IMG/VR virus record: IMGVR_UViG_2778261510_000012
Reading direction: 5' to 3' (one strand)
Length of the DNA stretch: 22,380 nucleotides
Source of the DNA: a virus
Lineage: Duplodnaviria > Heunggongvirae > Uroviricota > Caudoviricetes
The notes under the pieces are model-generated. The model was not told the origin of the DNA. It saw nothing but the letters and a program-made list of their open reading frames with translations, and searched no databases. The first letter of the stretch is position 1, and every line of letters starts with the position of its first letter. A program made the position numbers and the translations under genes. This document shows, piece by piece, positions 1,990 to 22,380 of the stretch.

Positions 1990-4461
1990 TTAAAAATCAG
2001 CCTGACTCGGGATCAGTTTTTGCCAGATAGCTGAAACGTATTTTGCCTGGTAACGAGCGTCATCAAGTGCATTATGGCGCTCACCTTCGAATGGGATAGC
2101 AGTTCTGGCATCGAAGTCTATGGCTTTCCCCAGCTCAACGATTGTGCGTACATCGCGATCGTTGCAGTAGCGCCACGGGCAGGGGATACCCTGTCGTTCG
2201 TATGAACGGCGTAAAATCACGTTGTCGAAGTTGGCCCCATTACCCCAGACCTGAACAAAAAATTCACCGGAGTTTTCGTCGATAAATTCCCGCAATTGCA
2301 GTAGTGCATCATCTAACGGGATTTCATCGGTCATAATGGCAGACTGCGCTTCACGTGATTGCTTCAGCCACCATTTAATGACGTCACGATCAATGACTCC
2401 GCCAGCAGTATCCAGATCGATGGTCTTGCTAAATTCCGGCCCCATCTCTCCGGTTTGTGGATCGAAAAATATTGCGCCTATTGAGATAATCGGGGCATCG
2501 GGATTTTTTCCCATTGTTTCAAGGTCGATCATCAGATGAATCCCCGCTCTGCTGGTGGATGTGAGCTTATAATGACCATTCACCTTAATTAAGGGATCTG
2601 TCGCCTCGCCAGTTTTATTATCGCTGGCGTGATGCTGATTGCCGCCAGGGTTCTCCTTGTGTGGATGTTCAGCGCCTTCCATTTCCTCCGGATCATTTTC
2701 CTGAACTTCAACCTGATTCTCTTCATCGAATGTTTCCTGGTATGTTGCGTCGCCCATCACCGCGCCACAATCAGGGCAGTTGCCGCCACCGCTCTGACCG
2801 CAGGCGGTGCAGACTTTTTCCGGTTCCTGTTGCGCTACTGGTTCGGATTGTTTCGTTTCTGGCTCGTTTTGTAACGCATTTGGGCTGTTTTGTTCCGCTT
2901 TCTGGTCGTTCTGTTCCGTTTCTTGCTGGTTCTGGTTCACAGAATCGCGGGTTTCAATCCCCTTCACCCATTTCGGATCATTCGGATCGCTAATCCCTGC
3001 AACAAATTCACCACGTGATACTGCAAGCAGTTCATCGGCGTCAGGCTGGCTGATATTGGCTGCCCGCATAATTTTGTTTACTTCGTCAGCGGTAACTTTT
3101 ACCGGCTCTGGTTGTGCGGTCGTGTCAGATGCACCAGTATTTTGTTGTGAACCTGAGTATGTACCGTTTTTGCGGGCGAAATATTCTTCTTTCGTGATTT
3201 CAGTAGCCCCGGCAGCCAGCGCCTTATCCAGACCAGAAAGTTTGTTTGCGCGACCGTATTTTTCGCCATTCTTGTCGGTGAAGAGGAAGTAGAACGGCCC
3301 CTCACGCTCTACAGATGGTTCGACTTCCACTTTGCATTCGGTTTTTTCGTTGTCCGGAATTGCCGTTTCCACTGCATCAGTTTCTGGTACTGGCGACGAG
3401 AGAGTATCAGTTGCGCTCTGATTTCTTCCTTCATCTTCAAACACGCCCTTTGTAGTCAGGTATTCAGTAATGTATTTGTTCAGTGCCACAGGGTCTTTGT
3501 GAATGTCGATCGGACGTTCACGGACAAGGCCAAAAATAGTCTGGCGGTCGTAGCGAAGGGCATCAGGCTGTTTGCGCATTGATGCCGAGATACGCTTCCA
3601 GTCTTCGCGGTCGTTGTCGATAACTTCTTTTTTTGCCCAGCGATGGATGCTGCCGTCAATGTTTCCGGCATCCACATCACTAGGCCAGAGAGCGTAGGCC
3701 AGTTCGTCATCCAGTGTTTTCCATGTCTGCTTGTATTCGCGATGAATGGCAGCAATGACCGGGCTGATTTTTCCTGTTGAATTTTCAGTGTACTGTTGAT
3801 TGGCTCTGGCGCGGGCGAGATCAACAACAGACGTGTATTTTCCGGTTTCCTTGCGTTCACCTTCGCGACGTTTTTTCCAGATGCACATCTCTGCCTGAAT
3901 TTCGGGCCATTTGGCACCAGGCTTACATTTATGCTTAACCCACCCGATGGCATGCAGCTTAAGCTCCGGATACATGGCGTTTACTTCTGGCATTTTCATC
4001 AACGCTTCAACGATATGGCCGTCGAATGTTGCCATGTCTTCCTGCAACAATTCCTGTGCGCTAATCACCATATCAACAGTGATGTTTTCACATGTGTCGA
4101 ACTTAACCATGACAGCGTTCTGTACTTCAGGGGCCAGCTTGTCAAAAGTGACGTTCATCGGATCTGATTCAGTCTCAACCGGGACAAAGGAAGCAGACTC
4201 CTCATCCCAGCGGTTTTCCTGCATATATTCAGCATCCCAGGAATCGAGGGCAGGGCGGGGTATACCGGGTTTATCCTCGCAGACAAGAAATTTATAAGCG
4301 CAGTCCTGAGCAGCCGGATAATGTTCCAGGAATTGCCAGTGAAATTTTGCGCGGGCGCGACGTTCATCACCGGCTTCAATGGCAGTAGCTACAGCGACTG
4401 CACCTTCTTCCTTTATTGCCTGTTCGTCCGGAATGGCGGCGCAAATAAAGACTTTACTCAT
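1990..4461 (-). CDS. Large prophage exonuclease-domain protein (YdfE-like); C-terminal DnaQ-like DEDDh 3'-5' exonuclease domain
   Basis: 823 aa; the C-terminal ~190 aa carry the three DEDDh motifs (MIDLETMG, WGNGANFDNVIL, HNALDDARY); internal CTACGQSGGGNCPDCG zinc-ribbon-like motif and an acidic/Gln-rich low-complexity stretch; occupies the exo position between xis and dicB/ydfD. Confidence 0.75.
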   Translation of the reverse strand: MSKVFICAAIPDEQAIKEEGAVAVATAIEAGDERRARAKFHWQFLEHYPAAQDCAYKFLVCEDKPGIPRPALDSWDAEYMQENRWDEESASFVPVETESDPMNVTFDKLAPEVQNAVMVKFDTCENITVDMVISAQELLQEDMATFDGHIVEALMKMPEVNAMYPELKLHAIGWVKHKCKPGAKWPEIQAEMCIWKKRREGERKETGKYTSVVDLARARANQQYTENSTGKISPVIAAIHREYKQTWKTLDDELAYALWPSDVDAGNIDGSIHRWAKKEVIDNDREDWKRISASMRKQPDALRYDRQTIFGLVRERPIDIHKDPVALNKYITEYLTTKGVFEDEGRNQSATDTLSSPVPETDAVETAIPDNEKTECKVEVEPSVEREGPFYFLFTDKNGEKYGRANKLSGLDKALAAGATEITKEEYFARKNGTYSGSQQNTGASDTTAQPEPVKVTADEVNKIMRAANISQPDADELLAVSRGEFVAGISDPNDPKWVKGIETRDSVNQNQQETEQNDQKAEQNSPNALQNEPETKQSEPVAQQEPEKVCTACGQSGGGNCPDCGAVMGDATYQETFDEENQVEVQENDPEEMEGAEHPHKENPGGNQHHASDNKTGEATDPLIKVNGHYKLTSTSRAGIHLMIDLETMGKNPDAPIISIGAIFFDPQTGEMGPEFSKTIDLDTAGGVIDRDVIKWWLKQSREAQSAIMTDEIPLDDALLQLREFIDENSGEFFVQVWGNGANFDNVILRRSYERQGIPCPWRYCNDRDVRTIVELGKAIDFDARTAIPFEGERHNALDDARYQAKYVSAIWQKLIPSQADF

Positions 4462-5099: not shown

Positions 5100-5157
5100 A
5101 AAAAGGGCGGCAGAGCAGCCACGGAGTAAAACTGATACCGCCAAACGTCACCAGAAA
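5100..5157 (-). ncRNA. dicF: DicF small regulatory RNA
   Basis: Minus-strand sequence TTTCTGGTGACGTTTGGCGGTATCAGTTTTACTCCGTGGCTGCTCTGCCGCCCTTTTT matches the DicF sRNA as I recall it (about one mismatch), ends in a GC stem plus U-tract, and lies about 170 nt upstream of dicB. Confidence 0.75.
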
Positions 5158-7596: not shown

Positions 7597-7687
7597 GTTT
7601 TGATTTTAAAACACAGATGGTTTTGTTTCTTGACTTTCTTTGGTTTTGATTATTAAACTTTTGGCGTTCAGTTTTATGGAGCGACTC
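7597..7687. promoter_or_regulatory. Rightward operator/promoter region (OR, pR-like, pRM-like)
   Basis: Two 16-bp pseudo-palindromes GTTTTGATTTTAAAAC (7597-7612) and GTTTTGATTATTAAAC (7643-7658); TTGACT at 7630-7635 followed 18 bp later by TAAACT as a candidate pR. Confidence 0.5.
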
Positions 7688-7918
7688 ATGAAAAAATCAG
7701 AAGTATTAGGCTATTTTGGCGGAGTTGTTAAAACAGCCGCAGCTCTAGGAACGTCAAAAACCACAGTCAGCATGTGGGGGGAAGAGGTTCCGTGGAAATG
7801 GGCGTTGCTAATTCAGGCAGTCACTGCCGGGGCGCTCAAATATGAGTTACACATACCGACGGTTGTCATTCCCGGTTCTGATCATAATCCGCCTTCTAAC
7901 CAAGGGGGGGATTCATGA
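7688..7918 (+). CDS. Cro-like HTH regulator (DicC/YdaS-like)
   Basis: 76 aa from the ATG at 7688 (GGAG RBS); LGYFGG...KTAAALG...SMW pattern resembles the DicC/YdaS Cro-type proteins; divergent from the repressor. Confidence 0.7.
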   Translation: MKKSEVLGYFGGVVKTAAALGTSKTTVSMWGEEVPWKWALLIQAVTAGALKYELHIPTVVIPGSDHNPPSNQGGDS

Positions 7919-8340
7919 AAATCAAGCATGAACACATCCGCATGGCGATGAATGCCTGGGCGCGTCCTGATGGCGAAAAAGTTCCAGCAGCTGGAATAAC
8001 CCAGGCTTATTTTGAGTTGGGTATGACGTTTCCTGAACTGTATGACGACAGCCATCCGGAAGCCTTGGCTCGCAATACCCAGAAAATTTTCCGCTGGGTA
8101 GAGAAAGACACCCCTGATGCAGTTGAAAAAATTCAGGCGTTGTTACCAGCGATCGAAAAGGCAATGCCACCTTTGCTGGTGGCCAGAATGCGCAGCCACA
8201 GTTCAGCTTATTTTCGGGAGCTGGTGGAGACGCGGGAGCGATTGGTGAGAGACGCTGATGATTTTGTCGCAGTGGCAATCGCCGGTTTCAATCAGATGAA
8301 CCGTGGTGGCCCGGCAGGAAATGCTGTGGCAGTACATTGA
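7915..8340 (+). CDS. YdaT-like protein (CII-like position)
   Basis: 141 aa; N-terminus MKIKHEHI matches the YdaT family as I recall it; ATGA overlap with the cro-like gene. Confidence 0.65.
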   Translation: MKIKHEHIRMAMNAWARPDGEKVPAAGITQAYFELGMTFPELYDDSHPEALARNTQKIFRWVEKDTPDAVEKIQALLPAIEKAMPPLLVARMRSHSSAYFRELVETRERLVRDADDFVAVAIAGFNQMNRGGPAGNAVAVH

Positions 8341-9522: not shown

Positions 9523-9945
9523 GTGGCAAAAGTTTTTACACAAGAAGAGCGAGAAAAAATTAAAGGGCAGGTTGTTGAACTCGTACGCCAGAGTGGGCGT
9601 GAGACGTTACGGCAACTGGAAGTCAAAACAGGTGCGACAAGATATCTGATGAGCGTTCTCGCAAGAGAGCTGGTTGCCAGCGGCGATGTATACAACTCTG
9701 GTTACGGGTTATTCCCGTCTGAACAGGCGCGTAAGGACTGGCAAAATGCCCGTAAAAAGCTCTCAAGGGCAAAGCTGAAGAAACCATCTGCGGTTGATTC
9801 GGACCTTATCTGGTCATTACCTGACGGAGAAATACGTCGCTACGACAGGCGTCAGAACATAATCTGTCGCGAGTGCCGGAAGAGTGAAGTTATGCAGCGC
9901 ATATTGTCGTTTTATCAGGGGGATGTTCGGTATTTATTGAAGTGA
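9523..9945 (+). CDS. Hypothetical 140-aa basic protein downstream of the replication initiator
   Basis: ORF with AGGAGG RBS and apparent GTG start; no recognisable motif; sits where lambdoid phages usually encode a helicase loader but is too small for one. Confidence 0.45.
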   Translation: MAKVFTQEEREKIKGQVVELVRQSGRETLRQLEVKTGATRYLMSVLARELVASGDVYNSGYGLFPSEQARKDWQNARKKLSRAKLKKPSAVDSDLIWSLPDGEIRRYDRRQNIICRECRKSEVMQRILSFYQGDVRYLLK

Positions 9946-10012
9946 CGAGATTCAAGTGCATTAGTTCAGATGCAAATTGACTTTTTGTGGCACAGGGTAG
10001 AGCTAGCGTGGT

Positions 10013-10038
10013 TGTCCGCTTTGTGCCAACAGCGGACA
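10013..10038. other. Inverted repeat / hairpin between convergent genes
   Basis: TGTCCGCT - 10 nt - AGCGGACA perfect 8-bp stem; no strong U-tract. Confidence 0.4.
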
Positions 10039-10091
10039 TTATAGATGGTATATGTAGAAAGTGAACATGCGTAGATTGTATGATTTAGCCG

Positions 10092-10316
10092 TCACTTAAT
10101 TATTGGATAACTCACACAAGTATGACCGTTGCTTATCGCATACATTTGGTTTCCCTTAAGATTTACAAATGGAAATGTCGTATACTCATAATTTATAGAG
10201 GTCATATTAAATGTAAGGAATTTATCTTCAAGTTCTAATTTTGTAGAGTGGGCAGGGTATGTTCCTTCATTTTTCATTGTGATAATAAAACCGATAGGGA
10301 AAAATGTAAAGCACAA
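10092..10316 (-). pseudogene. Probable frameshifted 3' portion of the HNH-like gene
   Basis: A +1-frame ORF overlaps the end of 10274..10900; a single-base insertion in the A5/T5 run at 10300-10304 would fuse both into one ~265-aa frame; the track start is TTG and the first ATG has no SD. Confidence 0.4.
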
Positions 10317-10900
10317 ATAAATGCCACATGTCCTTCGTTCATAAATGCTACACTTTGAGCGGATATGTGCATTCTGTGTGGGTAAAACCAGTAGTAAATA
10401 TCATGAGTTTCCTCAAAACTTGAATTTTTACCCAAAACATAATCCTTTAAAGGTGTATAGAAGGGGCTATCTACGGGTTCTTTTTTACAATCTTCAACTG
10501 AAGTTGCTGATAGCACGTGCCCAATCATAGCCTTAGTGAAAGATATGCTATCAAAAGGTATTCTAATGAATGGATATACATTCATACCATTCATATATCG
10601 CCTTAACTGTTCTTTAAAGGACTTTGTTACATTTTCAATTGCAACATCGAGCCCACCTAATACCTTATTGTTACAGTGGCTGCAAATGGTTCTGAAATAA
10701 GAGCCATTTTTAGCATTTAATGGTTTAACTGGTTCCTGAATACCAAAAAATTCGCTAACTGTTTTCTGCAAAACAGGGCCTAAGGTTATGGCGCACTTTG
10801 GAGGAACATGATCTTTTGTGAGCAAGCCATATTTCCCACAAATATTGCAATAACCTTCAGTAATGCCATTGTGCTTCCATCGTTCACTAATTTTCGTCAT
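10274..10900 (-). CDS. AT-rich cargo gene encoding a protein with an HNH-like Cys/His motif
   Basis: 208 aa; RBS GAGGGA; CNICGKYGLLTKDHVPPK (CxxC-x9-DH) and CSHCNNK motifs resemble the zinc-bound HNH fold with an unusually long spacer; low GC relative to flanks. Confidence 0.6.
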   Translation of the reverse strand: MTKISERWKHNGITEGYCNICGKYGLLTKDHVPPKCAITLGPVLQKTVSEFFGIQEPVKPLNAKNGSYFRTICSHCNNKVLGGLDVAIENVTKSFKEQLRRYMNGMNVYPFIRIPFDSISFTKAMIGHVLSATSVEDCKKEPVDSPFYTPLKDYVLGKNSSFEETHDIYYWFYPHRMHISAQSVAFMNEGHVAFICALHFSLSVLLSQ

Positions 10901-11524
10901 TTTTATTCCCTCAGTAGCATAAGCTATCTATACGTTTTTTAATCCTATCAAAGATACAACTTAACGTCAGGAAAATGATAGTGTTTATCTAAGTAATACA
11001 ATTAACTTCAACGCGTGACAGTCTGCTTTTCGCTCAAAGCGGACTAGAAGGTTAGCTTGCGTCGGACTTGGCGTATTTAAAGAAGTGCTGGTGGTGACTG
11101 GTTGTTGTGTTCCATTTCTACAGAACAAAATCACAGAAACTATACCCAATAGTTGTATTGAATCACTGACGAGACAGCCTCATATTTATCAGGACTGGTG
11201 TACGTCCAATACAGGAGGTTGTGGTGCTGGTTCTCAAATGTGCGCTGGCTATTGCTGCTGTAATGGCAATTTATTGCCTTGCTGTTGTTCTTATGGATCG
11301 CCTTTCTGACTGATTTCATATTGGCGAGGTAACGGGAGTTAAGTAGAATGGCTGCGGGTGCTTGAGGCTATCTGTCTCAGGCATGAACACCAAAGGCAGA
11401 TAGAGAAAAGCCCCAGTTAACATTACGCGTCCTGCAAGACGCTTAACATTAATCTGAGGCCATATCTATGCTCTACACACATAGGTTAGCCTCTTACGTG
11501 CCGAAAGGCAAGGAGGAGCAGTCT

Positions 11525-11680
11525 ATGAAGCAGCAAAAGGCGATGTTAATCGCCCTGATCGTCATCTGTTTAACCGTCATAGTGACGGCACTGGTAACGA
11601 GGAAAGACCTCTGCGAGGTACGAATCCGAACCGGCCAGACGGAGGTCGCTGTCTTCACAGCTTACGAACCTGAGGAGTAA
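11525..11680 (+). CDS. hokD: Hok-family type I toxin (HokD/RelF-like)
   Basis: 51-aa translation MKQQKAMLIALIVICLTVIVTALVTRKDLCEVRIRTGQTEVAVFTAYEPEE matches HokD/RelF as I recall it; AGGAGG RBS 8 nt upstream; the track ORF from 11468 is an in-frame extension. Confidence 0.85.
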   Translation: MKQQKAMLIALIVICLTVIVTALVTRKDLCEVRIRTGQTEVAVFTAYEPEE

Positions 11681-11823: not shown

Positions 11824-12216
11824 ATGAAGAAACTTGTTTTAGTCGTAGGTGTAATGATTGCAACAGTAATGTTGGGAGGGTGTGCAGCAAAGGTCGATCC
11901 AGCGTTGAAAGCAGAAGCAATGAAGCCACTAACATGTAAAGATGAAAAGCAATGTGACTTTTATTGGAAACGAGCGCAATTCTGGTTGGCTAATAATTCC
12001 TCATGGAAAATTCAAACGGCGACAAACACGCTAATTTCCACTTATAACCCTTCACCAAATAGCCCATTCCTCGCTTATCAAGTGAGTAAAATGCCAAATG
12101 AAGATGGATCCGCAAGAATTTTCATCAAGCCTTTTTGCGATAATATGTTTGGCTGTCAACCAAACCCCTATCAGGCAATTGTTTCCTTTAAAAACTTCGT
12201 TAAAACTGGGCAGTAA
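11824..12216 (+). CDS. Putative lipoprotein (130 aa)
   Basis: Signal peptide with lipobox-like LGGC (MKKLVLVVGVMIATVMLGGCAAK); RBS GGGCAGGGAG; four further Cys in the mature part. Confidence 0.6.
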   Translation: MKKLVLVVGVMIATVMLGGCAAKVDPALKAEAMKPLTCKDEKQCDFYWKRAQFWLANNSSWKIQTATNTLISTYNPSPNSPFLAYQVSKMPNEDGSARIFIKPFCDNMFGCQPNPYQAIVSFKNFVKTGQ

Positions 12217-12443: not shown

Positions 12444-12722
12444 ATGGCGCACGATACCAAATTACACAATTCTAATGATTCTGCCGTCTTTGCCAGCAGG
12501 CGCGGACGGCGTTTTCACGTATTCAAATCAGACTGGTTCCAGCATCCTCCATGCACTGAAGAGCAGGCGGAATGGATAATTCAGTGTTACCGCAGGCGCG
12601 GATACGAGGTTAAGAAAGCCCTCAGCCTCGATTATCGTCACTGGATAATCTATGTCAGGCTCCCTTATTCCGAACGCCCACCGCGCCCATCCCGCACATA
12701 CCAGCAACGGATCTGGAGGTAA
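12444..12722 (+). CDS. Hypothetical 92-aa protein translationally coupled to the DUF968 gene
   Basis: First ATG in the frame (the track ORF starts earlier on a non-ATG codon); ends TAA 1 nt before the GTG start of the next gene; weak RBS. Confidence 0.4.
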   Translation: MAHDTKLHNSNDSAVFASRRGRRFHVFKSDWFQHPPCTEEQAEWIIQCYRRRGYEVKKALSLDYRHWIIYVRLPYSERPPRPSRTYQQRIWR

Positions 12723-12723
12723 C

Positions 12724-13779
12724 GTGCGGATATTACTTCGACCTGTTCTGGTACCGGAACTTGGGCTGGTGGTCCTTAGGCCGGGCCGTGAATCCATGCA
12801 AGTATTTCATAACCCTCGAGTGCTGGTGGAGCCTGAACCGAAAAGCATGCGCGGTCTGCCGTCCGGAGTCGTCCCTGCCGCTCGCCAGCCGCTGGTGGAA
12901 GACAAAACATTGCTGCCGTTTTTCAGTAACGCACGGGTGATTCGTGCTGCTGGTGGTGCTGGTGCATTGTCTGACTGGCTGTTGCGCCATATTAAATCCT
13001 GCCAGTGGCCACACGGCGATTATCATCACAGCGAAACCGTCATTCACTGTTATGGTACCGGCGCAATGGTGTTGTGCTGGCACTGCGACAACCAGCTACG
13101 TGACCAGACATCCGAATCACTCGAGCAACTTGCTCATCAAAACCTGTCAGCATGGATGATTGACGTCATCGGTCACGCAATAAGCGGTACGCAGGAGCGT
13201 GAATTATCTTTGGCTGAATTATCCTGGTGGGCGGTCCGCAATCAGGTGGCGGACGCGCTACCGGAAGCGGTATTACGTCGTTCGCTGGGGTTGCGTGCGG
13301 AAAAAATCCGCTCAATGTACCGTGAAAGCGACATCGTGCCGGGAGAGCAGACCGCCACCAGCATACTGAAGCAGCGCACAAAAAATCTTGCGCCGCTGCC
13401 TCACGCCCACCAGCAAAACCCGCCACAGGAAAAGACGGTGGTAAGCATTGCCGTTGATCCGGAGTCACCGGCTCAGTATCTCCAGCGCCAGAAACCACAA
13501 CGGGAAGAGATGCCTGTATACACGCGCTGGGTAAAAACGCAGAAATGCATGACGTGCGGTAATCAGGCAGATGATCCGCATCACATCATTGGTCATGGAC
13601 TGGGAGGGATGGGAACAAAGGCTGATGATTTGTTTGTTATTCCGCTGTGCCGTAAATGTCATAACGAACTGCACGCCGGGGTAAAAGATTTTGAAGAAAA
13701 ACACGGCAGCCAGCTGTTGTTGCTGATTCGTTTTTTAATGCACGCGAGAAATTCGGGTGTCCTGAAGTGGAAAGCATGA
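12724..13779 (+). CDS. DUF968-family prophage protein (YdfU-like)
   Basis: 351 aa from the GTG at 12724 (GGAGG RBS 5 nt upstream); C-terminal CMTCGNQADDPHHIIGHGLGG...LCRKCHNELH Cys/His motif characteristic of DUF968 as I recall it; same position relative to hokD as ydfU in Qin. Confidence 0.7.
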   Translation: MRILLRPVLVPELGLVVLRPGRESMQVFHNPRVLVEPEPKSMRGLPSGVVPAARQPLVEDKTLLPFFSNARVIRAAGGAGALSDWLLRHIKSCQWPHGDYHHSETVIHCYGTGAMVLCWHCDNQLRDQTSESLEQLAHQNLSAWMIDVIGHAISGTQERELSLAELSWWAVRNQVADALPEAVLRRSLGLRAEKIRSMYRESDIVPGEQTATSILKQRTKNLAPLPHAHQQNPPQEKTVVSIAVDPESPAQYLQRQKPQREEMPVYTRWVKTQKCMTCGNQADDPHHIIGHGLGGMGTKADDLFVIPLCRKCHNELHAGVKDFEEKHGSQLLLLIRFLMHARNSGVLKWKA

Positions 13780-15115: not shown

Positions 15116-15118
15116 ATT

Positions 15119-15195
15119 CCGCCACCAGCTCATCTGGATAGAGCATCAGCCTTCTAAGTTGATTGTGCGAGGTTCGAGCACCCGGTGGCGGACCA
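15119..15195 (+). tRNA. tRNA-like sequence with Arg (UCU) anticodon loop, probably degenerate
   Basis: D-arm GCTC-ATCTGGATA-GAGC and anticodon arm TCAGC-CTTCTAA-GTTGA are canonical and the 3' end is ACCA, but the acceptor stem has one mismatch, position 8 is C, and the T-stem pairs at only 3 of 5 positions. Confidence 0.4.
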
Positions 15196-17757: not shown

Positions 17758-17799
17758 CCGACGGTGAGAGCAGAATATTTTTTAGCGGAGCGAAATTCT

Positions 17800-18150
17800 A
17801 TGCCATCACAAATCCCCCGCGCCTGCCGTAAGCGTGGATGTGCAGGTACAACCACAGACAGTTCTGGTTACTGCGATAAACATCGTGGCGAAGGATGGGT
17901 ACAGCATCAGCGCGGACTGAGCCGCCACCAGCGTGGCTATGGCTCGAAATGGGATGCCATACGTGCGCGCATACTGAAGCGTGATAATCATCTGTGTCAG
18001 AACTGCATGCGCAATGGGAGAGCCGTTGAAGCCAGAACTGTGGACCACATCATTCCGAAAGCTCATGGTGGCACGGATGCAGACAGTAACCTGCAGAGTC
18101 TGTGCTGCCCCTGTCATAAAGCAAAAACAGCGCGCGAACGCATCAATTGA
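17800..18150 (+). CDS. HNH endonuclease (terminase-associated)
   Basis: 116 aa from the ATG at 17800; CxxC...DHIIPKAHGG...NLQSLCCPCHKAK is the classic HNH motif; directly upstream of the small terminase. Confidence 0.85.
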   Translation: MPSQIPRACRKRGCAGTTTDSSGYCDKHRGEGWVQHQRGLSRHQRGYGSKWDAIRARILKRDNHLCQNCMRNGRAVEARTVDHIIPKAHGGTDADSNLQSLCCPCHKAKTARERIN

Positions 18151-18298: not shown

Positions 18299-18781
18299 AT
18301 GTCAGGACCCCCGAAAACCCCGCCACGCCTGCATTTGATACGAGGCAACCCCTCAAAGCGCCCCGTTAAAGACCCAAAAAAAACCGCTAAAAAGGATGAA
18401 AAAGGTCTCCCTAAAATTCCGCAACATTTAGGGTCGCAGGGGAAGTACTGGTTCAGGCGAATGGCGGAAGAACTGAATGCGGAAGGGATCATTTCTCAGC
18501 TTGATGCGCGTGCACTCGAGTTACTGGTGGAAGCCTACACCGAATACCGGCATCACTGCGAAACACTTGATGCTGAGGGTTATACCTACCGCACGGAAAC
18601 GCAGAACGGTGATGTGCTGATTAAGGCACACCCGGCTGCTGCGATGAAAGCGGATGCCTGGAAGCGGATCCGGGCGATGCTTGCAGAGTTTGGTATGTCA
18701 CCGGCAAGCCGGGCGAAAGTAAATACCGCCGGACCGGATGATGTTGATCCGCTGGCGGAACTTTTAAAAGCGAGAGACTGA
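18299..18781 (+). CDS. Terminase small subunit (P27-family-like)
   Basis: 160 aa; basic N-terminus, conserved LDARALELLVEAY...AEFGMSPASRAK pattern; stop overlaps the large-subunit start. Confidence 0.8.
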   Translation: MSGPPKTPPRLHLIRGNPSKRPVKDPKKTAKKDEKGLPKIPQHLGSQGKYWFRRMAEELNAEGIISQLDARALELLVEAYTEYRHHCETLDAEGYTYRTETQNGDVLIKAHPAAAMKADAWKRIRAMLAEFGMSPASRAKVNTAGPDDVDPLAELLKARD

Positions 18782-19974
18782 TGGCAAAAGTGGCTGACGG
18801 GATCCGCTACGCCGAACGTGTTGTTGCAGGAGAAATTGTCGCTGGCGAATTTGTCCGTCTGGCCTGCCAGCGTTTTCTTGATGATCTGAAGTACGGCGAA
18901 GAGCGGGGGATTTATTTCAGTGAACCCCGTGCGCAGCACATCCTGAATTTCTACAAATTTGTGCCTCATGTAAAAGGGGCGCTGGCAGGCCAGCCTATTG
19001 AGTTGATGGACTGGCATGTATTTATCCTCATTAATATTTTTGGTTTTGTCATTCCGCTGGTCAATGAAGAGACCGGGGAAGTTGTCATGCGCAGCGATGG
19101 CAGCGGACGTCCGGTGATGGTGCGCCGGTTCCGGACGGCGTACAACGAAGTCGCCCGTAAAAACGCAAAATCAACCCTGTCATCGGGTATCGGTCTGTAT
19201 ATGACGGGGGCAGATGGTGAAGGCGGTGCTGAGGTGTATTCAGCCGCAACTACGCGTGACCAGGCCAGAATCGTGTTTGAAGACGCCAAAAATATGGTCA
19301 GAAAAGCCCGGTCGACACTCGGGCGGTTGTTTGATTTCAACAAGCTGGCGATTTACCAGGAGCAGAGCGCATCAAAATTTGAACCGCTTTCTTCGGATGC
19401 AAACAACCTGGATGGTCTGAACATCCACTGCGCCATTATTGATGAGCTGCATGCACATAAAACCCGTGACGTGTGGGACGTTCTGGAAACGGCAACCGGT
19501 GCCCGTCTGCAGTCCCTTTTATTTGGTATCACCACGGCAGGGTTTAACAAGGAAGGGATTTGTTACGAGCAGCGTGATTACGCCATCAAGGTATTGCGTG
19601 GCTATAACAGCGACGTGGAGGGCGCGGTAAAAGACGACTCCTACTTTGCGATTATTTACACCCTCGATGAGGGAGATGATCCGTTTGATGAAACGGTCTG
19701 GCAGAAAGCGAATCCCGGCCTGGGCATCTGTAAACGCTGGGATGATCTGCGTCGCCTGGCGAAAAAAGCGAAAGAACAGGTCTCTGCGCGGGTGAATTTT
19801 TTTACCAAGAACGTAACATCACGCCGTAACAACAGTGCGGCCTGTCCTGATTTTTTTAGTAACCAAATGAAAGAAAAAGATTTTTTCTTGTTCGTCGTTT
19901 TTGTTTTTTCTGGAAGGTTCTGGCTGTTTTCATCATTTGTGTATTGCACTGTGTATTGCAAAAACGGGTTATAA
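18781..19974 (+). pseudogene. Terminase large subunit, 3'-truncated (ATPase region only)
   Basis: About 340 aa of terminase-like sequence, then the frame runs into AT-rich low-complexity codons (FFTKNVTSRRNNSAACPDFFSNQMKEKDFFLFVVFVF...) and stops; the nuclease domain expected in a ~550-aa protein is missing. Confidence 0.75.
19938..19960. repeat. Tandem direct repeat TGTGTATTGCA x2 upstream of the P4-type integrase
   Basis: TGTGTATTGCA at 19938-19948 and 19950-19960, about 20 bp before the int start. Confidence 0.6.
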
Positions 19975-19979
19975 ATCAC

Positions 19980-21203
19980 ATGGCGCTAAACAAACTGAGC
20001 GATAAAAAACTTCGTTCCCTGCTTGGGCGCAGGAGTGAGAGGCAGGAAACCATCGCTGATGGTAACGGGCTTTCGGTACGGGTCAGTAAATACGGATGTG
20101 TTAGTTTTGTTTTCTTTTACAGACTGGCGGGAAGGGGAACCGCGCCCATCTGGCTGACACTTGGAAAATATCCTGATCTGAGTCTCAAATCAGCGAGAGA
20201 GATGCGCGATCAGTGTCGAACCTGGCTTGCGGAGGGCAGAGATCCACGGATTCAGATAAAAATTGAACGGGAAGCCACCTTGCAACCTGTTACCGTTCGT
20301 GAGGCGCTTGAATACTGGCTTGATAATTATGCAATGGATAAGCGTAGGGGAGCAGAACATATCAGGCAGTGCTTTGGTAAACATATTTATCCGGTGATTG
20401 GTCATGTACCACTTAGTGATTGCTCAATATCTATGTGGATCAAGTGCTTTGACAAAATAAAAAAAGTAGCACCTGTACAGGCCGGAGCTTTATTGCGTAT
20501 ATCAAAACAGGCGCTTAAATTTTGTCGGGTAAGAAAATACGCGATTAGTCATGAAATTGATGATCTTGAGGTCTGTGATGTGGGAAAAAAGTCTGCGCGA
20601 AGAAGCAGGGTTTTAACAGATGATGAAATCAGAGATTTATGGCGAAGTATTAATACTGATTATGACAATCACGAATTATCATATGAAAACCGAATTATTT
20701 TACGTTTCCTGGTAGTTTTTGGTTGCCGACTGTCAGAAGTATTACTGTCCTCCTGGGGAGAGTGGGATTTTGATAAGAAATTATGGCGCGTTCCCGCTGA
20801 TCATAGCAAAAATGGCAGGGAAATAATCAGACCGATTCCTGATGGCATGTTTAACTGGTTAGTTACGTTAAAAAAAATAACAGGTAACAAAGAAAATGTG
20901 ATTGGGTTTGATATGCGTCAGTGTACGGCAAGCGTAACTATCGGTAAGACATGGAAAAGGATGAAACACTCGGAGAAATGGACGGCGCATGATATGCGAA
21001 GAGTGTTTGCCACAAAGCTAAGTGATCATGGTTTTGAACATAATGTGGTTGAACAGTTGCTTGGGCACACATTAGGCGGTGTTGCCGGGGTTTATAACAG
21101 AAGCCAGTATATGGACAGAAAAAAAGAAGCTATGAACTGGTGGTACGACTACCTGAATAAGCTAATTAGTGGTGATGGTAATGATTCAAATAGTTACGCG
21201 TGA
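19980..21203 (+). CDS. Tyrosine integrase, P4 type
   Basis: 407 aa from the ATG at 19980; N-terminus MALNKLSDKKLRSLLG...GNGLSVRVSKYGCVSFVFFYRLAGRG...LGKYPDLSLKSAREMRDQ matches the P4-integrase arm-binding region; C-terminal HDMRRVFAT...LLGHT...YNR catalytic motifs. Confidence 0.9.
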   Translation: MALNKLSDKKLRSLLGRRSERQETIADGNGLSVRVSKYGCVSFVFFYRLAGRGTAPIWLTLGKYPDLSLKSAREMRDQCRTWLAEGRDPRIQIKIEREATLQPVTVREALEYWLDNYAMDKRRGAEHIRQCFGKHIYPVIGHVPLSDCSISMWIKCFDKIKKVAPVQAGALLRISKQALKFCRVRKYAISHEIDDLEVCDVGKKSARRSRVLTDDEIRDLWRSINTDYDNHELSYENRIILRFLVVFGCRLSEVLLSSWGEWDFDKKLWRVPADHSKNGREIIRPIPDGMFNWLVTLKKITGNKENVIGFDMRQCTASVTIGKTWKRMKHSEKWTAHDMRRVFATKLSDHGFEHNVVEQLLGHTLGGVAGVYNRSQYMDRKKEAMNWWYDYLNKLISGDGNDSNSYA

Positions 21204-21402
21204 AGAACTTGAAAATGATAAAACAATCGACAGGATGATTAAGGAAGATGAATGTGCATGGTTAACTGCTCTTGGCAGGAGACACAGATCGTTACTTGAA
21301 AAGGAAGGAAAATTTCCACGAAAAATATGTATTGGCCCACAAACAAAAGTCTGGCGCTTATCTGAGGTGCTGGAATGGGTAAAGGGTGAATGGAAACCCT
21401 GA
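21181..21402 (+). CDS. alpA: AlpA-family transcriptional regulator
   Basis: 73 aa; WLTALGRRHRSLLEKEGKFPRKICIGPQTKVWRLSEVLEWV fits the AlpA HTH pattern; start overlaps the int 3' end (alternative ATG at 21175). Confidence 0.7.
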   Translation: MIQIVTREELENDKTIDRMIKEDECAWLTALGRRHRSLLEKEGKFPRKICIGPQTKVWRLSEVLEWVKGEWKP

Positions 21403-21425
21403 GCTAAATTAAATGAGATATAATC

Positions 21426-21450
21426 AACCCGTCTTTTGGCGGGTTTTTTT
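21426..21450 (+). terminator. Rho-independent terminator after alpA
   Basis: AACCCG-TCTTTTGG-CGGGTT followed by TTTTT. Confidence 0.5.
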
Positions 21451-21465
21451 ATAGGTGATATTTTT

Positions 21466-21744
21466 ATGCAAAAATTTATTTATCCTACACCCGAAGAACG
21501 CATTCAGATTCTGAAAGAGCATGGCGAACCGTATGATCGCCGTATACGCGAACATGAGTGTGCCAATCGTACCGGGCTTTCAAGAAGCAGACGTTGGGTA
21601 CTTGAACAGGAGGGAGCATTTCCTGCTCGTGCTCATTTAGGGAAAGTGTCTGTTTCCTGGTTGCTCTCTGATGTGCTCTGGTGGGTTATGCATCCGCCAG
21701 GAGTAAAGGAAGTAAACAGCCCATACAAAAACGCCAATAAGTAA
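21466..21744 (+). CDS. Second AlpA-like small DNA-binding protein
   Basis: 92 aa from the ATG at 21466; ECANRTGLSRSRRWVLEQEGAFPARAHLGKVSVSWLLSDVLWWV resembles the AlpA/HTH_17 pattern. Confidence 0.5.
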   Translation: MQKFIYPTPEERIQILKEHGEPYDRRIREHECANRTGLSRSRRWVLEQEGAFPARAHLGKVSVSWLLSDVLWWVMHPPGVKEVNSPYKNANK

Positions 21745-21754
21745 TTACCGACAA

Positions 21755-21782
21755 CCCCGCACCACGCAATGCGGGGTTTTTT
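21755..21782 (+). terminator. Rho-independent terminator
   Basis: CCCCGCA-CCACGCAA-TGCGGGG followed by TTTTTT. Confidence 0.6.
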
Positions 21783-21801
21783 GTATGTGAGGTAGAAAGC
21801 G

Positions 21802-22380
21802 ATGAATAAAAATATTGCCGTGACGGGCAAGGGTGACGCACGTCATGTGAAAAAATTCTGTGATATTCGTGATCTGGTCGTTCTGCGCTTTGATGGTGTG
21901 AACGTTCGCGTGGTGTATCTGAACGGCGATCCGTGGTTTGTTGCAAAGGATGTTTGCGCTGCGCTGGAACTGACCAATTCGCGTACGGCGTTGCAGATGC
22001 TTGATGATGATGAAAAGGGAGTAAATTTAACTTACACCCCCGGAGGAAATCAGAATATGAGCATTATCTCTGAGTCAGGTTTCTACAAACTAATAGCCCG
22101 CAGCCGCAAAGCAACGACGCCTGGCACATTTGCTCATCGTTTCAGTAACTGGGTATTCAGGAATGTGATACCAGGTATCAGAAAGACAGGGGCTTATGGT
22201 ATCCCGTGGGGCGCATTGCAGGATTTTTCCCGCCGTAAAGAGCAATATCAAATAAGTGCCAGTGAGAAGGGGAGGGAGCTACAGGCCTGTAAGCGCAAAA
22301 AGCGTGAACTGGAGGAAGAAGAAAAAAGGCTGATACGTGAATATCAGCCTGAGTTTTACTTTGACAACTGCATTCAGTGA
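21802..22380 (+). CDS. Bro-N domain protein (antirepressor-like)
   Basis: 192 aa; FDGVNVRVVYLNGDPWFVAKDVCAALELTNSRTALQMLDDDEKG matches the Bro-N pattern; charged coiled-coil-like C-terminus. Confidence 0.65.
   Translation: MNKNIAVTGKGDARHVKKFCDIRDLVVLRFDGVNVRVVYLNGDPWFVAKDVCAALELTNSRTALQMLDDDEKGVNLTYTPGGNQNMSIISESGFYKLIARSRKATTPGTFAHRFSNWVFRNVIPGIRKTGAYGIPWGALQDFSRRKEQYQISASEKGRELQACKRKKRELEEEEKRLIREYQPEFYFDNCIQ

Follow-up and report, generated by a model that had tools for sequence, protein, structure and literature searches.

In a 22,380-nucleotide sequence of a Caudoviricetes virus (IMG/VR record IMGVR_UViG_2778261510_000012; the whole stretch analysed, hereafter the window), which corresponds to a Qin/Rac-like lambdoid prophage, a disrupted minus-strand gene at 10092-10900 encodes in its intact form a 269-residue protein whose overall best explanation is a stand-alone, mobile-element-borne defence nuclease, a reading that we consider reasonably probable from comparative sequence analysis and structure prediction. 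The gene belongs to a widespread protein family with a common set of conserved residues and a fold-level resemblance to HNH nucleases, it moves between unrelated elements, it lies in a cargo hotspot and the copy in the window carries a real frameshift. The protein was already known as an anonymous hypothetical protein in databases and as a PHROG of unknown function; what is new is an HNH nuclease candidate whose core is split and joined to a novel partner domain, which makes it a credible single-gene defence candidate.

The original prediction, made from the letters alone, had described a low-GC minus-strand gene with a good ribosome-binding site, and this is borne out by the guanine-plus-cytosine content of the gene region (35.2%, against 47.2% for the window) and by a GAGGG element placed 7 nucleotides before the start codon. 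The first minus-strand open reading frame (ORF; 10900-10274, 208 amino acids) starts with ATG at 10900-10898 and ends with TGA at 10276-10274, and a second minus-strand ORF in another frame extends to TGA at 10094-10092, so that the predicted stop at 10274 and continuation to 10092 agree with the ORF coordinates. Both motifs that had been quoted, CNICGKYGLLTKDHVPPK (residues 18-35 of the predicted protein) and CSHCNNK (residues 73-79), are present. Addition of one T to the T5 run at 10300-10304 (A5 on the plus strand) joins the two frames as proposed, the fused product being 269 rather than about 265 amino acids long. The features of the gene are as follows:

10092-10900, minus strand: the whole disrupted gene, 809 nucleotides in the window and 810 when intact
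10274-10900, minus strand: reading frame 1, whose 208-residue product (WP_249539053.1) consists of 200 native and 8 aberrant residues (SLSVLLSQ)
10300-10304, minus strand: the frameshift site, T5 on the coding strand and T6 in intact relatives, codon 200-201, at the invariant F200-x-P202
10092-10299, minus strand: the out-of-frame remainder, conserved residues 201-269, including the nearly invariant F243-P244
10646-10858, minus strand: the predicted HNH-like, zinc-buttressed beta-beta-alpha core, residues 15-85
10838-10849, minus strand: core motif C18xxC21
10799-10813, minus strand: core motif D30-H31-V-P-P
10670-10684, minus strand: core motif C73xxC76-N77
10646-10648, minus strand: core residue D85
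Residues 33-66: an insert of about 35 residues interrupting the HNH-like core
10095-10585, minus strand: coding region of the C-terminal alpha/beta domain (intact-protein residues 106-269), with conserved G127-H128, W171, Y173 and P202
10912-10908, minus strand: the ribosome-binding site GAGGG, with 7-nucleotide spacing to the ATG

The resemblance to a zinc-coordinated HNH motif with a longer spacer, proposed in the original prediction, is supported by conservation, a Pfam scan, predicted models and profile alignment. Among 131 family members, with identities down to about 20%, C18, C21, H31, C73, C76, N77, G127, W171 and P202 are invariant, and D30, P33, P34, D85 and H128 are conserved in at least 90%; the order CxxC, D-H, CxxC-N reads as the signature of zinc-buttressed His-Me-finger nucleases. 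When all 131 members were scanned against Pfam, HNH_5 was matched in 96 (E <= 1; best E 1.9e-6), Endonuclease_7 in 20 and HNH in 16, and no unrelated family was recurrent. The sub-threshold matches fall on the two halves of the HNH_5 model, with the insertion between them. AlphaFold (AF2) models reached a predicted local distance difference test score (pLDDT) of 83.3 and a predicted template modelling score of 0.85 at full length, and a pLDDT of 82.8 for the N-terminal domain. In these models a strand at residues 24-32 ends in D30-H31, a second strand spans residues 67-73 and a helix begins at C73xxC76-N77, while the insert (residues 33-66) is predicted at lower confidence with a helix at 42-51. 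Thus the predicted models display the beta-beta-alpha-metal topology around the DH and CxxC residues, whose absence had been named beforehand as grounds for refutation. At the residue level, H31 and D30 would form the catalytic D-H pair and N77 would be the helix ligand in the Asn/His position, and the invariant C18, C21, C73 and C76 provide the two CxxC pairs of a structural zinc site, the binding of zinc being predicted. A sequence-profile search of the Protein Data Bank (PDB) gave no match with the full profile; with the N-domain profile the best match was the HNH endonuclease 4h9d, at a non-significant E of 0.93 and with both half-motifs in the right order.

Two observations weigh against this assignment: i) the window protein scores 11.5 bits on HNH_5, far from the curated cut-off of 27.5, and the canonical, terminase-associated HNH protein of the same window reaches 57.5 bits on Pfam HNH; ii) when the protein was compared by hhalign with that canonical HNH (17800-18150), either as a single sequence or as a profile, only the first half-motif was aligned. 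In its favour, after excision of residues 38-63, 44 contiguous columns pair the CxxC, D-H and CxxC elements in register with the canonical HNH profile, N77 stands opposite the canonical final His and the score rises to 21.1 (versus 11.1 +/- 2.5, maximum 19.9, for 200 column shuffles), with excision boundaries that were picked when the motif was already known. Each line of evidence is modest, but jointly they make an HNH-type core very likely. Such a core would be atypical in having a hairpin insert of about 35 residues and an Asn as its last ligand. The window holds two further HNH-type proteins, i.e., a DUF968 protein (12652-13779; HNHc_6 match) and the terminase-associated HNH endonuclease (17764-18150), and the gene studied here is a candidate for the third, by far the most divergent, His-Me-finger protein of the prophage.

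The conserved core might instead be a zinc-binding, HNH-derived scaffold that has a role other than cutting nucleic acid, for instance as a DNA-binding regulator or a protein-interaction module. This would suit the database names (only "metal-binding protein" or "chaperonin" beyond "hypothetical"), the sub-threshold HNH scores of the window protein and the 35-residue insert that splits the hairpin, and catalytically dead His-Me fingers do exist. However, it is not only the zinc ligands that are retained: H31, N77 and D30 are invariant or nearly so over the 131 members, therefore presenting the pattern expected of an active enzyme, and a scaffold without nuclease activity appears unlikely.

The family itself is large, and its members are with few exceptions full-length single proteins of about 270 amino acids. 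Among 5.8 billion proteins, a search identified 93 clusters, almost all of 268-280 amino acids, from Enterobacterales, Vibrio, Pseudomonas, Plesiomonas, Alishewanella and others; none carried a Pfam domain, and the names given were only "chaperonin", "metal-binding protein" and "hypothetical". An exhaustive profile search over 1.84 billion representatives yielded 1,742 at E <= 1e-3 and 336 at E <= 1e-30, almost all of them end-to-end matches of about 260-300 amino acids; the gene is therefore far more than a chance ORF. In an annotated collection the profile reached cyanobacteria, Betaproteobacteria and candidate phyla, where every member was "hypothetical" and lacked a precomputed Pfam domain. 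The "chaperonin" name that NCBI and UniRef give to many members (P0003, P0005, P0332 and others) has no support in sequence, structure or context and appears to be a propagated misannotation. GiPD474 and SNIPE were also checked and proved to be unrelated proteins.

The gene travels within a compact stretch that has its own putative expression signals and related repeats at its edges:

10942-10970, minus strand: a candidate promoter, recognised from sequence only, with CTGACG (10970-10965), a 17-nucleotide spacer, an extended -10 TG (10950-10949) and TAGGAT (10947-10942)
10006-10037, no strand: a hairpin-forming 32-nucleotide repeat at the 3' edge of the module, including an 8-bp stem at 10013-10038
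11013-11044, no strand: a related 32-nucleotide repeat at the 5' edge, identical to the other at 23 of 32 positions and meeting the end of the 99% homology to IncF plasmids

The candidate promoter elements lie in upstream sequence that the copies have in common, and a TTGATAG(G/T)ATT block is kept even in the Pectobacterium copy, whose coding sequence (CDS) is 82% identical; a scan for consensus promoters and terminators returned no site for this gene. The downstream hairpin was considered as an intrinsic terminator and is unsupported as such (z = -0.93 against shuffles, with no U-tract). Both 32-nucleotide repeats coincide with the ends of the plasmid homology and are present in the plasmid copy, but neither the P2-like copy nor the prophages whose cargo is SIR2 or a hydrolase have them; a role as general hotspot boundaries is thus only partly supported, and the repeats may be insulating terminators or recombination scars.

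Copies of this stretch occur in elements of quite different kinds. A conjugative IncF plasmid from Shigella sonnei carries, next to IS26, a segment with 99.1% identity to window positions 10005-11044, and the protein is encoded, at identities of at least 99%, on about 47 plasmids from E. coli, Shigella and Klebsiella; most of these are conjugative, and the one examined is IncF. The P2-like phage pro147 has a segment with 94% identity to positions 10014-10986, and the copy there sits between the tail-fibre-assembly and tail-sheath genes, i.e., at the Z/fun position. This position is an established cargo and defence hotspot of P2 (PMC13586616; bioRxiv 10.1101/2024.10.15.618418). Homologues from other genera have varied surroundings: ParE/RelB pairs within a P4-like integrative island; a filamentous prophage together with a DUF2726 gene; a serine-recombinase island by which an FKBP gene is split; a group of HEPN-AbiU2, Shedu and PLD-nuclease genes; a small accessory island; and integrase-bounded islands with either PIN toxins, GmrSD_N and HEPN or Mrr-type nucleases and AbiTii alongside. 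No neighbour gene was recurrent and no methyltransferase was adjacent in any neighbourhood examined. Location in defence islands or cargo hotspots is therefore seen at Z/fun, in the P4-like island, in the lambdoid slot shared with SIR2 cargo (below) and in the defence-gene neighbourhoods. Judged from these sequences, the module is about 1 kb long, self-contained and horizontally mobile, and consists of a single gene.

A module of this kind could also be a free-standing HNH homing endonuclease or a purely selfish mobile nuclease, in which the C-terminal domain binds a specific DNA target and the gene spreads by cutting cognate sites that lack it. Its compactness and own expression signals, the 94-99% nucleotide identity across a lambdoid prophage, a P2-like phage and IncF plasmids, the related repeats at its edges and the pairing of an N-terminal HNH core with an uncharacterised C-terminal domain would all be compatible with homing. 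On the other hand, homing uses one cognate site, whereas here the flanks differ from copy to copy (DUF977|hokD, G|FI, IS26|DUF2254, the P4-like cargo region and chromosomal islands); unrelated cargo occupies the same slots in sibling elements, which fits hotspot recombination over homing; Pfam scans detected none of the NUMOD, IENR1, AP2 or HTH modules of HNH homing enzymes; and many homologues reside in non-phage defence islands. Homing is thus quite unlikely. Among the options of the original prediction, a homing or defence nuclease or a pseudogene, the defence nuclease is favoured, with the present copy pseudogenised, and homing is disfavoured by the varying flanks and the missing NUMOD and IENR1 modules.

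In the window the gene is flanked by a DUF977 replication-region gene (9523-9945) and by the sok/hokD locus, and it is transcribed against the early-right operon. The surrounding landmarks are:

11356-11530, plus strand: sok region, Rfam, 112.6 bits
11525-11680: hokD CDS
5105-5156, minus strand: DicF small RNA, Rfam, 75 bits

The Rfam matches to DicF and sok confirm that the dicB-dicF module is Qin-like and that the type I toxin-antitoxin locus beside the gene is intact. In K-12 Qin, ydfV/flxA/relB/relE lie directly upstream of hokD, at the slot of the studied gene, so the earlier claim that a divergent gene has taken the place of relBE holds. Sibling E. coli prophages with the same flanks (loci L015, L016 and L017) carry other cargo, the alternative occupants being a SIR2-family protein, a DUF5677 pseudogene, QueH, an alpha/beta hydrolase and a DUF7167 protein; the SIR2-family occupant has weak matches to the defence models Aga_SIR2 and PDC-S21. 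From these comparisons the DUF977|sok/hokD junction (9946-11525) reads as a single-gene cargo-swap hotspot of Qin/Rac-like E. coli prophages, on which view relBE-hokD in K-12 would be just one of many occupants and not a fixed operon.

The C-terminal domain (about residues 106-269) is predicted to be alpha/beta with eight strands. No relative was found for it in Pfam, among PDB sequences or among PDB folds (the fold search was not run with the domain alone), and neither sequence nor fold searches revealed McrA-N, SRA, YTH, ASCH or PUA-type reader likeness. We infer that this domain gives target recognition or infection sensing.

In the proposed mechanism, the module lies, in the orientation opposite to the early operon, in the cargo-swap slot of a Qin/Rac-like lambdoid prophage. 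Within the N-terminal divergent HNH core of about 100 residues, a structural zinc would be coordinated by the two CxxC pairs, the general base would be His31, at the end of strand 1, Asn77 at the helix start would bind the catalytic metal together with Asp30, and the insertion of about 35 residues would split the beta-hairpin. The intact nuclease, expressed from the resident element, would cut invading phage or plasmid DNA, and the C-terminal residues (about 165) would provide self/non-self discrimination, which must lie in this domain because there is no methyltransferase or immunity partner. Discrimination could be either Type IV-like, directed at modified or otherwise foreign DNA, or abortive, responding to an infection cue, and we make no choice between the two.

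The defence role has its own counter-evidence: i) the sole strong library match, full-length, is PHROG 21495, whose function is unknown; ii) PADLOC-DB v2.0.0 (5,027 models, including validated hotspot systems) gave no match at E <= 10, and the NCBIfam search gave none; iii) literature searches by accession and keyword found no paper on the family, with one relevant 2025 prophage-defence screen outside reach; iv) the association with defence genes was judged qualitatively from about a dozen neighbourhoods, without an enrichment statistic; v) with no known modified-base reader or sensor matched, the mechanism of discrimination is speculation; vi) the link of the family to defence or to nuclease activity is one that we infer. 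Taken jointly, nuclease activity, zinc binding and a defence role are slightly favoured. More tentatively, the protein is possibly the founding member of a widespread and hitherto unrecognised single-protein anti-phage family, in which a split zinc-buttressed HNH core under a novel-fold C-terminal domain that discriminates foreign DNA shuttles among P2-like, P4-like, lambdoid and conjugative-plasmid hotspots. If the defence reading is true, the gene offers the defence field a compact 269-residue single-gene candidate, whose catalytic hypothesis is clear (H31, N77 and the four-Cys zinc site) and whose sensor or recognition fold is as yet unexplored, in a family spread over Enterobacteria, Vibrio, Pseudomonas, Betaproteobacteria and cyanobacteria and also carried by clinically relevant IncF resistance plasmids.

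The copy in the window reads as a fresh pseudogene that arose by T6 to T5 contraction, with the loss of 69 conserved C-terminal residues; these residues (201-269) contain five of the eight beta-strands of the predicted C-terminal domain. In a megablast search with positions 10000-11000, 136 of 5,426 complete E. coli genomes contained the whole stretch (99.7-99.9% identity), and the best matches listed all cover 1002 bases against the 1001-base query. The extra base of the relatives lies in the T run (T6 in UMNF18 and EC416; T7CC in strain 120899, likewise in frame), and the relatives have a single 810-nucleotide CDS annotated "hypothetical protein" (WP_000161639.1 or WP_000161640.1). An 81-nucleotide probe centred on the T run matched 119 complete E. 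coli genomes, none of them (0/119) exactly; the T5 allele is therefore absent from all the complete genomes, and each of these 119 encodes the intact protein in one ORF. In public collections the truncated 208-residue product, WP_249539053.1, is encoded in the draft GCA_002231025.1 and in Logan assemblies of two separate runs, SRR11147213 (its contig is listed for 4 samples) and SRR14510407; each of these loci is T5 and 100% identical to the window. The repaired 269-residue protein is identical to the sequence on 222 public contigs, and thus there is no other decay in the gene. We conclude that T5 is, with high probability, a true loss-of-function mutation of very recent origin, in one clone or lineage. 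The frameshift itself is an ordinary loss-of-function allele, one that experiments can use as a natural negative control.

A homopolymer sequencing or assembly error, with the intact gene in the actual strain, is the obvious alternative, a single-base difference in a homopolymer being the classic error class and T5 being found in none of the complete RefSeq E. coli genomes. However, an NCBI draft assembly and Logan re-assemblies of separate runs show the same T5, and this recurrence in independent read sets indicates a real allele rather than an assembly error, with the point against it that those read sets may all stem from one clone. Moreover, the EC416 prophage is 99.9% identical to the window across the full 22,380 bases, with 32 positions different, and only one homopolymer indel, the one in the studied gene, separates the two although the window has 154 runs of at least 5 bases; a generally error-prone assembly is thereby ruled out, and an unreal frameshift is very unlikely. 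Programmed -1 ribosomal frameshifting, transcriptional slippage or a phase-variation switch on the T run, any of which would keep the two-frame gene functional, is extremely improbable: a -1 slip of tRNA-Phe on CA-TTT-TTC would, by the sequence, restore exactly the wild-type HFFP, and homopolymer tracts are switches in some restriction systems, but homologues are uniformly single ORFs with T5 in 0/119 complete E. coli genomes, the site lacks a canonical X-XXY-YYZ heptamer in the zero frame, T5/T6 runs lack the length needed for efficient slippage or for phase variation at a high rate, and the T5 allele is apparently limited to sequences 100% identical to the window. Of the frameshift options raised earlier, a decayed pseudogene therefore stands, with the gene intact in relatives and T5 in independent assemblies; programmed frameshifting is rejected, largely refuted by comparative data in which the two-frame layout is not conserved, and the survey of homologues that had been suggested returned intact single frames instead of two separate genes.

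Among the 32 differences from EC416, 30 are substitutions that fall in three recombination-like patches, at 3628-3804 (inside the exonuclease gene), 11461-11553 (in the hok/sok leader) and 15117-15182 (across a tRNA-Arg(TCT) gene), a clustering that indicates mosaic recombination between related prophages. The tRNA-Arg of the window scores 32 bits on the Rfam tRNA model, versus 72 bits for its neighbour. A Cro/CI-type regulator gene (7640-7931) is annotated "frameshifted" in EC416 and the window is identical there; the prophage may thus hold a second disrupted gene, in the lysis-lysogeny switch.

Further downstream, a plus-strand ORF at 11824-12216 encodes 130 amino acids, the N-terminus of which resembles that of a lipoprotein (MKKLVLVVGVMIATVMLGGC); Pfam and PADLOC gave no match for it. 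The prophage of strain 120899, collinear elsewhere, lacks segment 11769-12345, and this ORF is therefore a second variable cargo gene, whose product is possibly a surface or exclusion lipoprotein. In the region 18781-22380, the gene for the terminase large subunit ends prematurely, soon after the start of its nuclease domain (the Pfam TerL_nuclease model is matched only at positions 2-65 of 286); in EC416 it is annotated as partial, up to 19815. It is followed directly by a tyrosine integrase (19944/19980-21203), two helix-turn-helix regulators and a BRO-N protein, and the region resembles an element that has inserted into a late gene of the prophage. The arrangement recalls helper-embedded phage-inducible chromosomal islands (PMC10111431).

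The nearest families of the studied protein, HNH_5 (PF14279), HNH (PF01844) and Endonuclease_7 (PF02945), comprise zinc-buttressed HNH or His-Me-finger nucleases, with solved examples such as the phage GVE2 HNH endonuclease (5h0o), the Geobacter HNH protein (4h9d) and the HNH domain of ZRANB3 (5mkw). Relative to these nucleases, the protein has an insert of about 35 residues between the DH strand and the second strand, its last metal ligand would be Asn instead of His (an H-N-N variant), it stays far under every Pfam threshold and its core is joined to a 165-residue C-terminal domain without known relative. A further parallel is with e14 McrA and with SRA-HNH and SBD-HNH proteins, which are solitary, modification-dependent Type IV HNH restriction enzymes carried by prophages. 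Like McrA, the protein is a stand-alone HNH candidate of about 270 amino acids, borne by prophages and other mobile elements, with a second, non-catalytic domain and with neither methyltransferase nor immunity partner; unlike McrA, it has the HNH part at the N-terminus, and its C-terminal domain has no detectable likeness to modified-base readers.

At the level of the element, the window shares with K-12 Qin the backbone dicB-ydfABC-repressor ... hokD ... DUF968/ydfU-Q and a variable slot directly upstream of hokD; it differs in lacking relBE, ydfV and flxA, the slot being filled by one divergently transcribed nuclease-like gene, and its hokD keeps its own sok/mok control region. Finally, in comparison with the defence systems of P4 and P2 hotspots (PMC9122126; P2 Z/fun locus), the protein matches none of the 5,027 PADLOC models that include the validated members, whereas the gene occupies the same kinds of sites (Z/fun of pro147 and the cargo region of a P4-like island) and, like those systems, is low in GC, consists of a single gene with its own putative promoter and is swapped with other defence-like genes.

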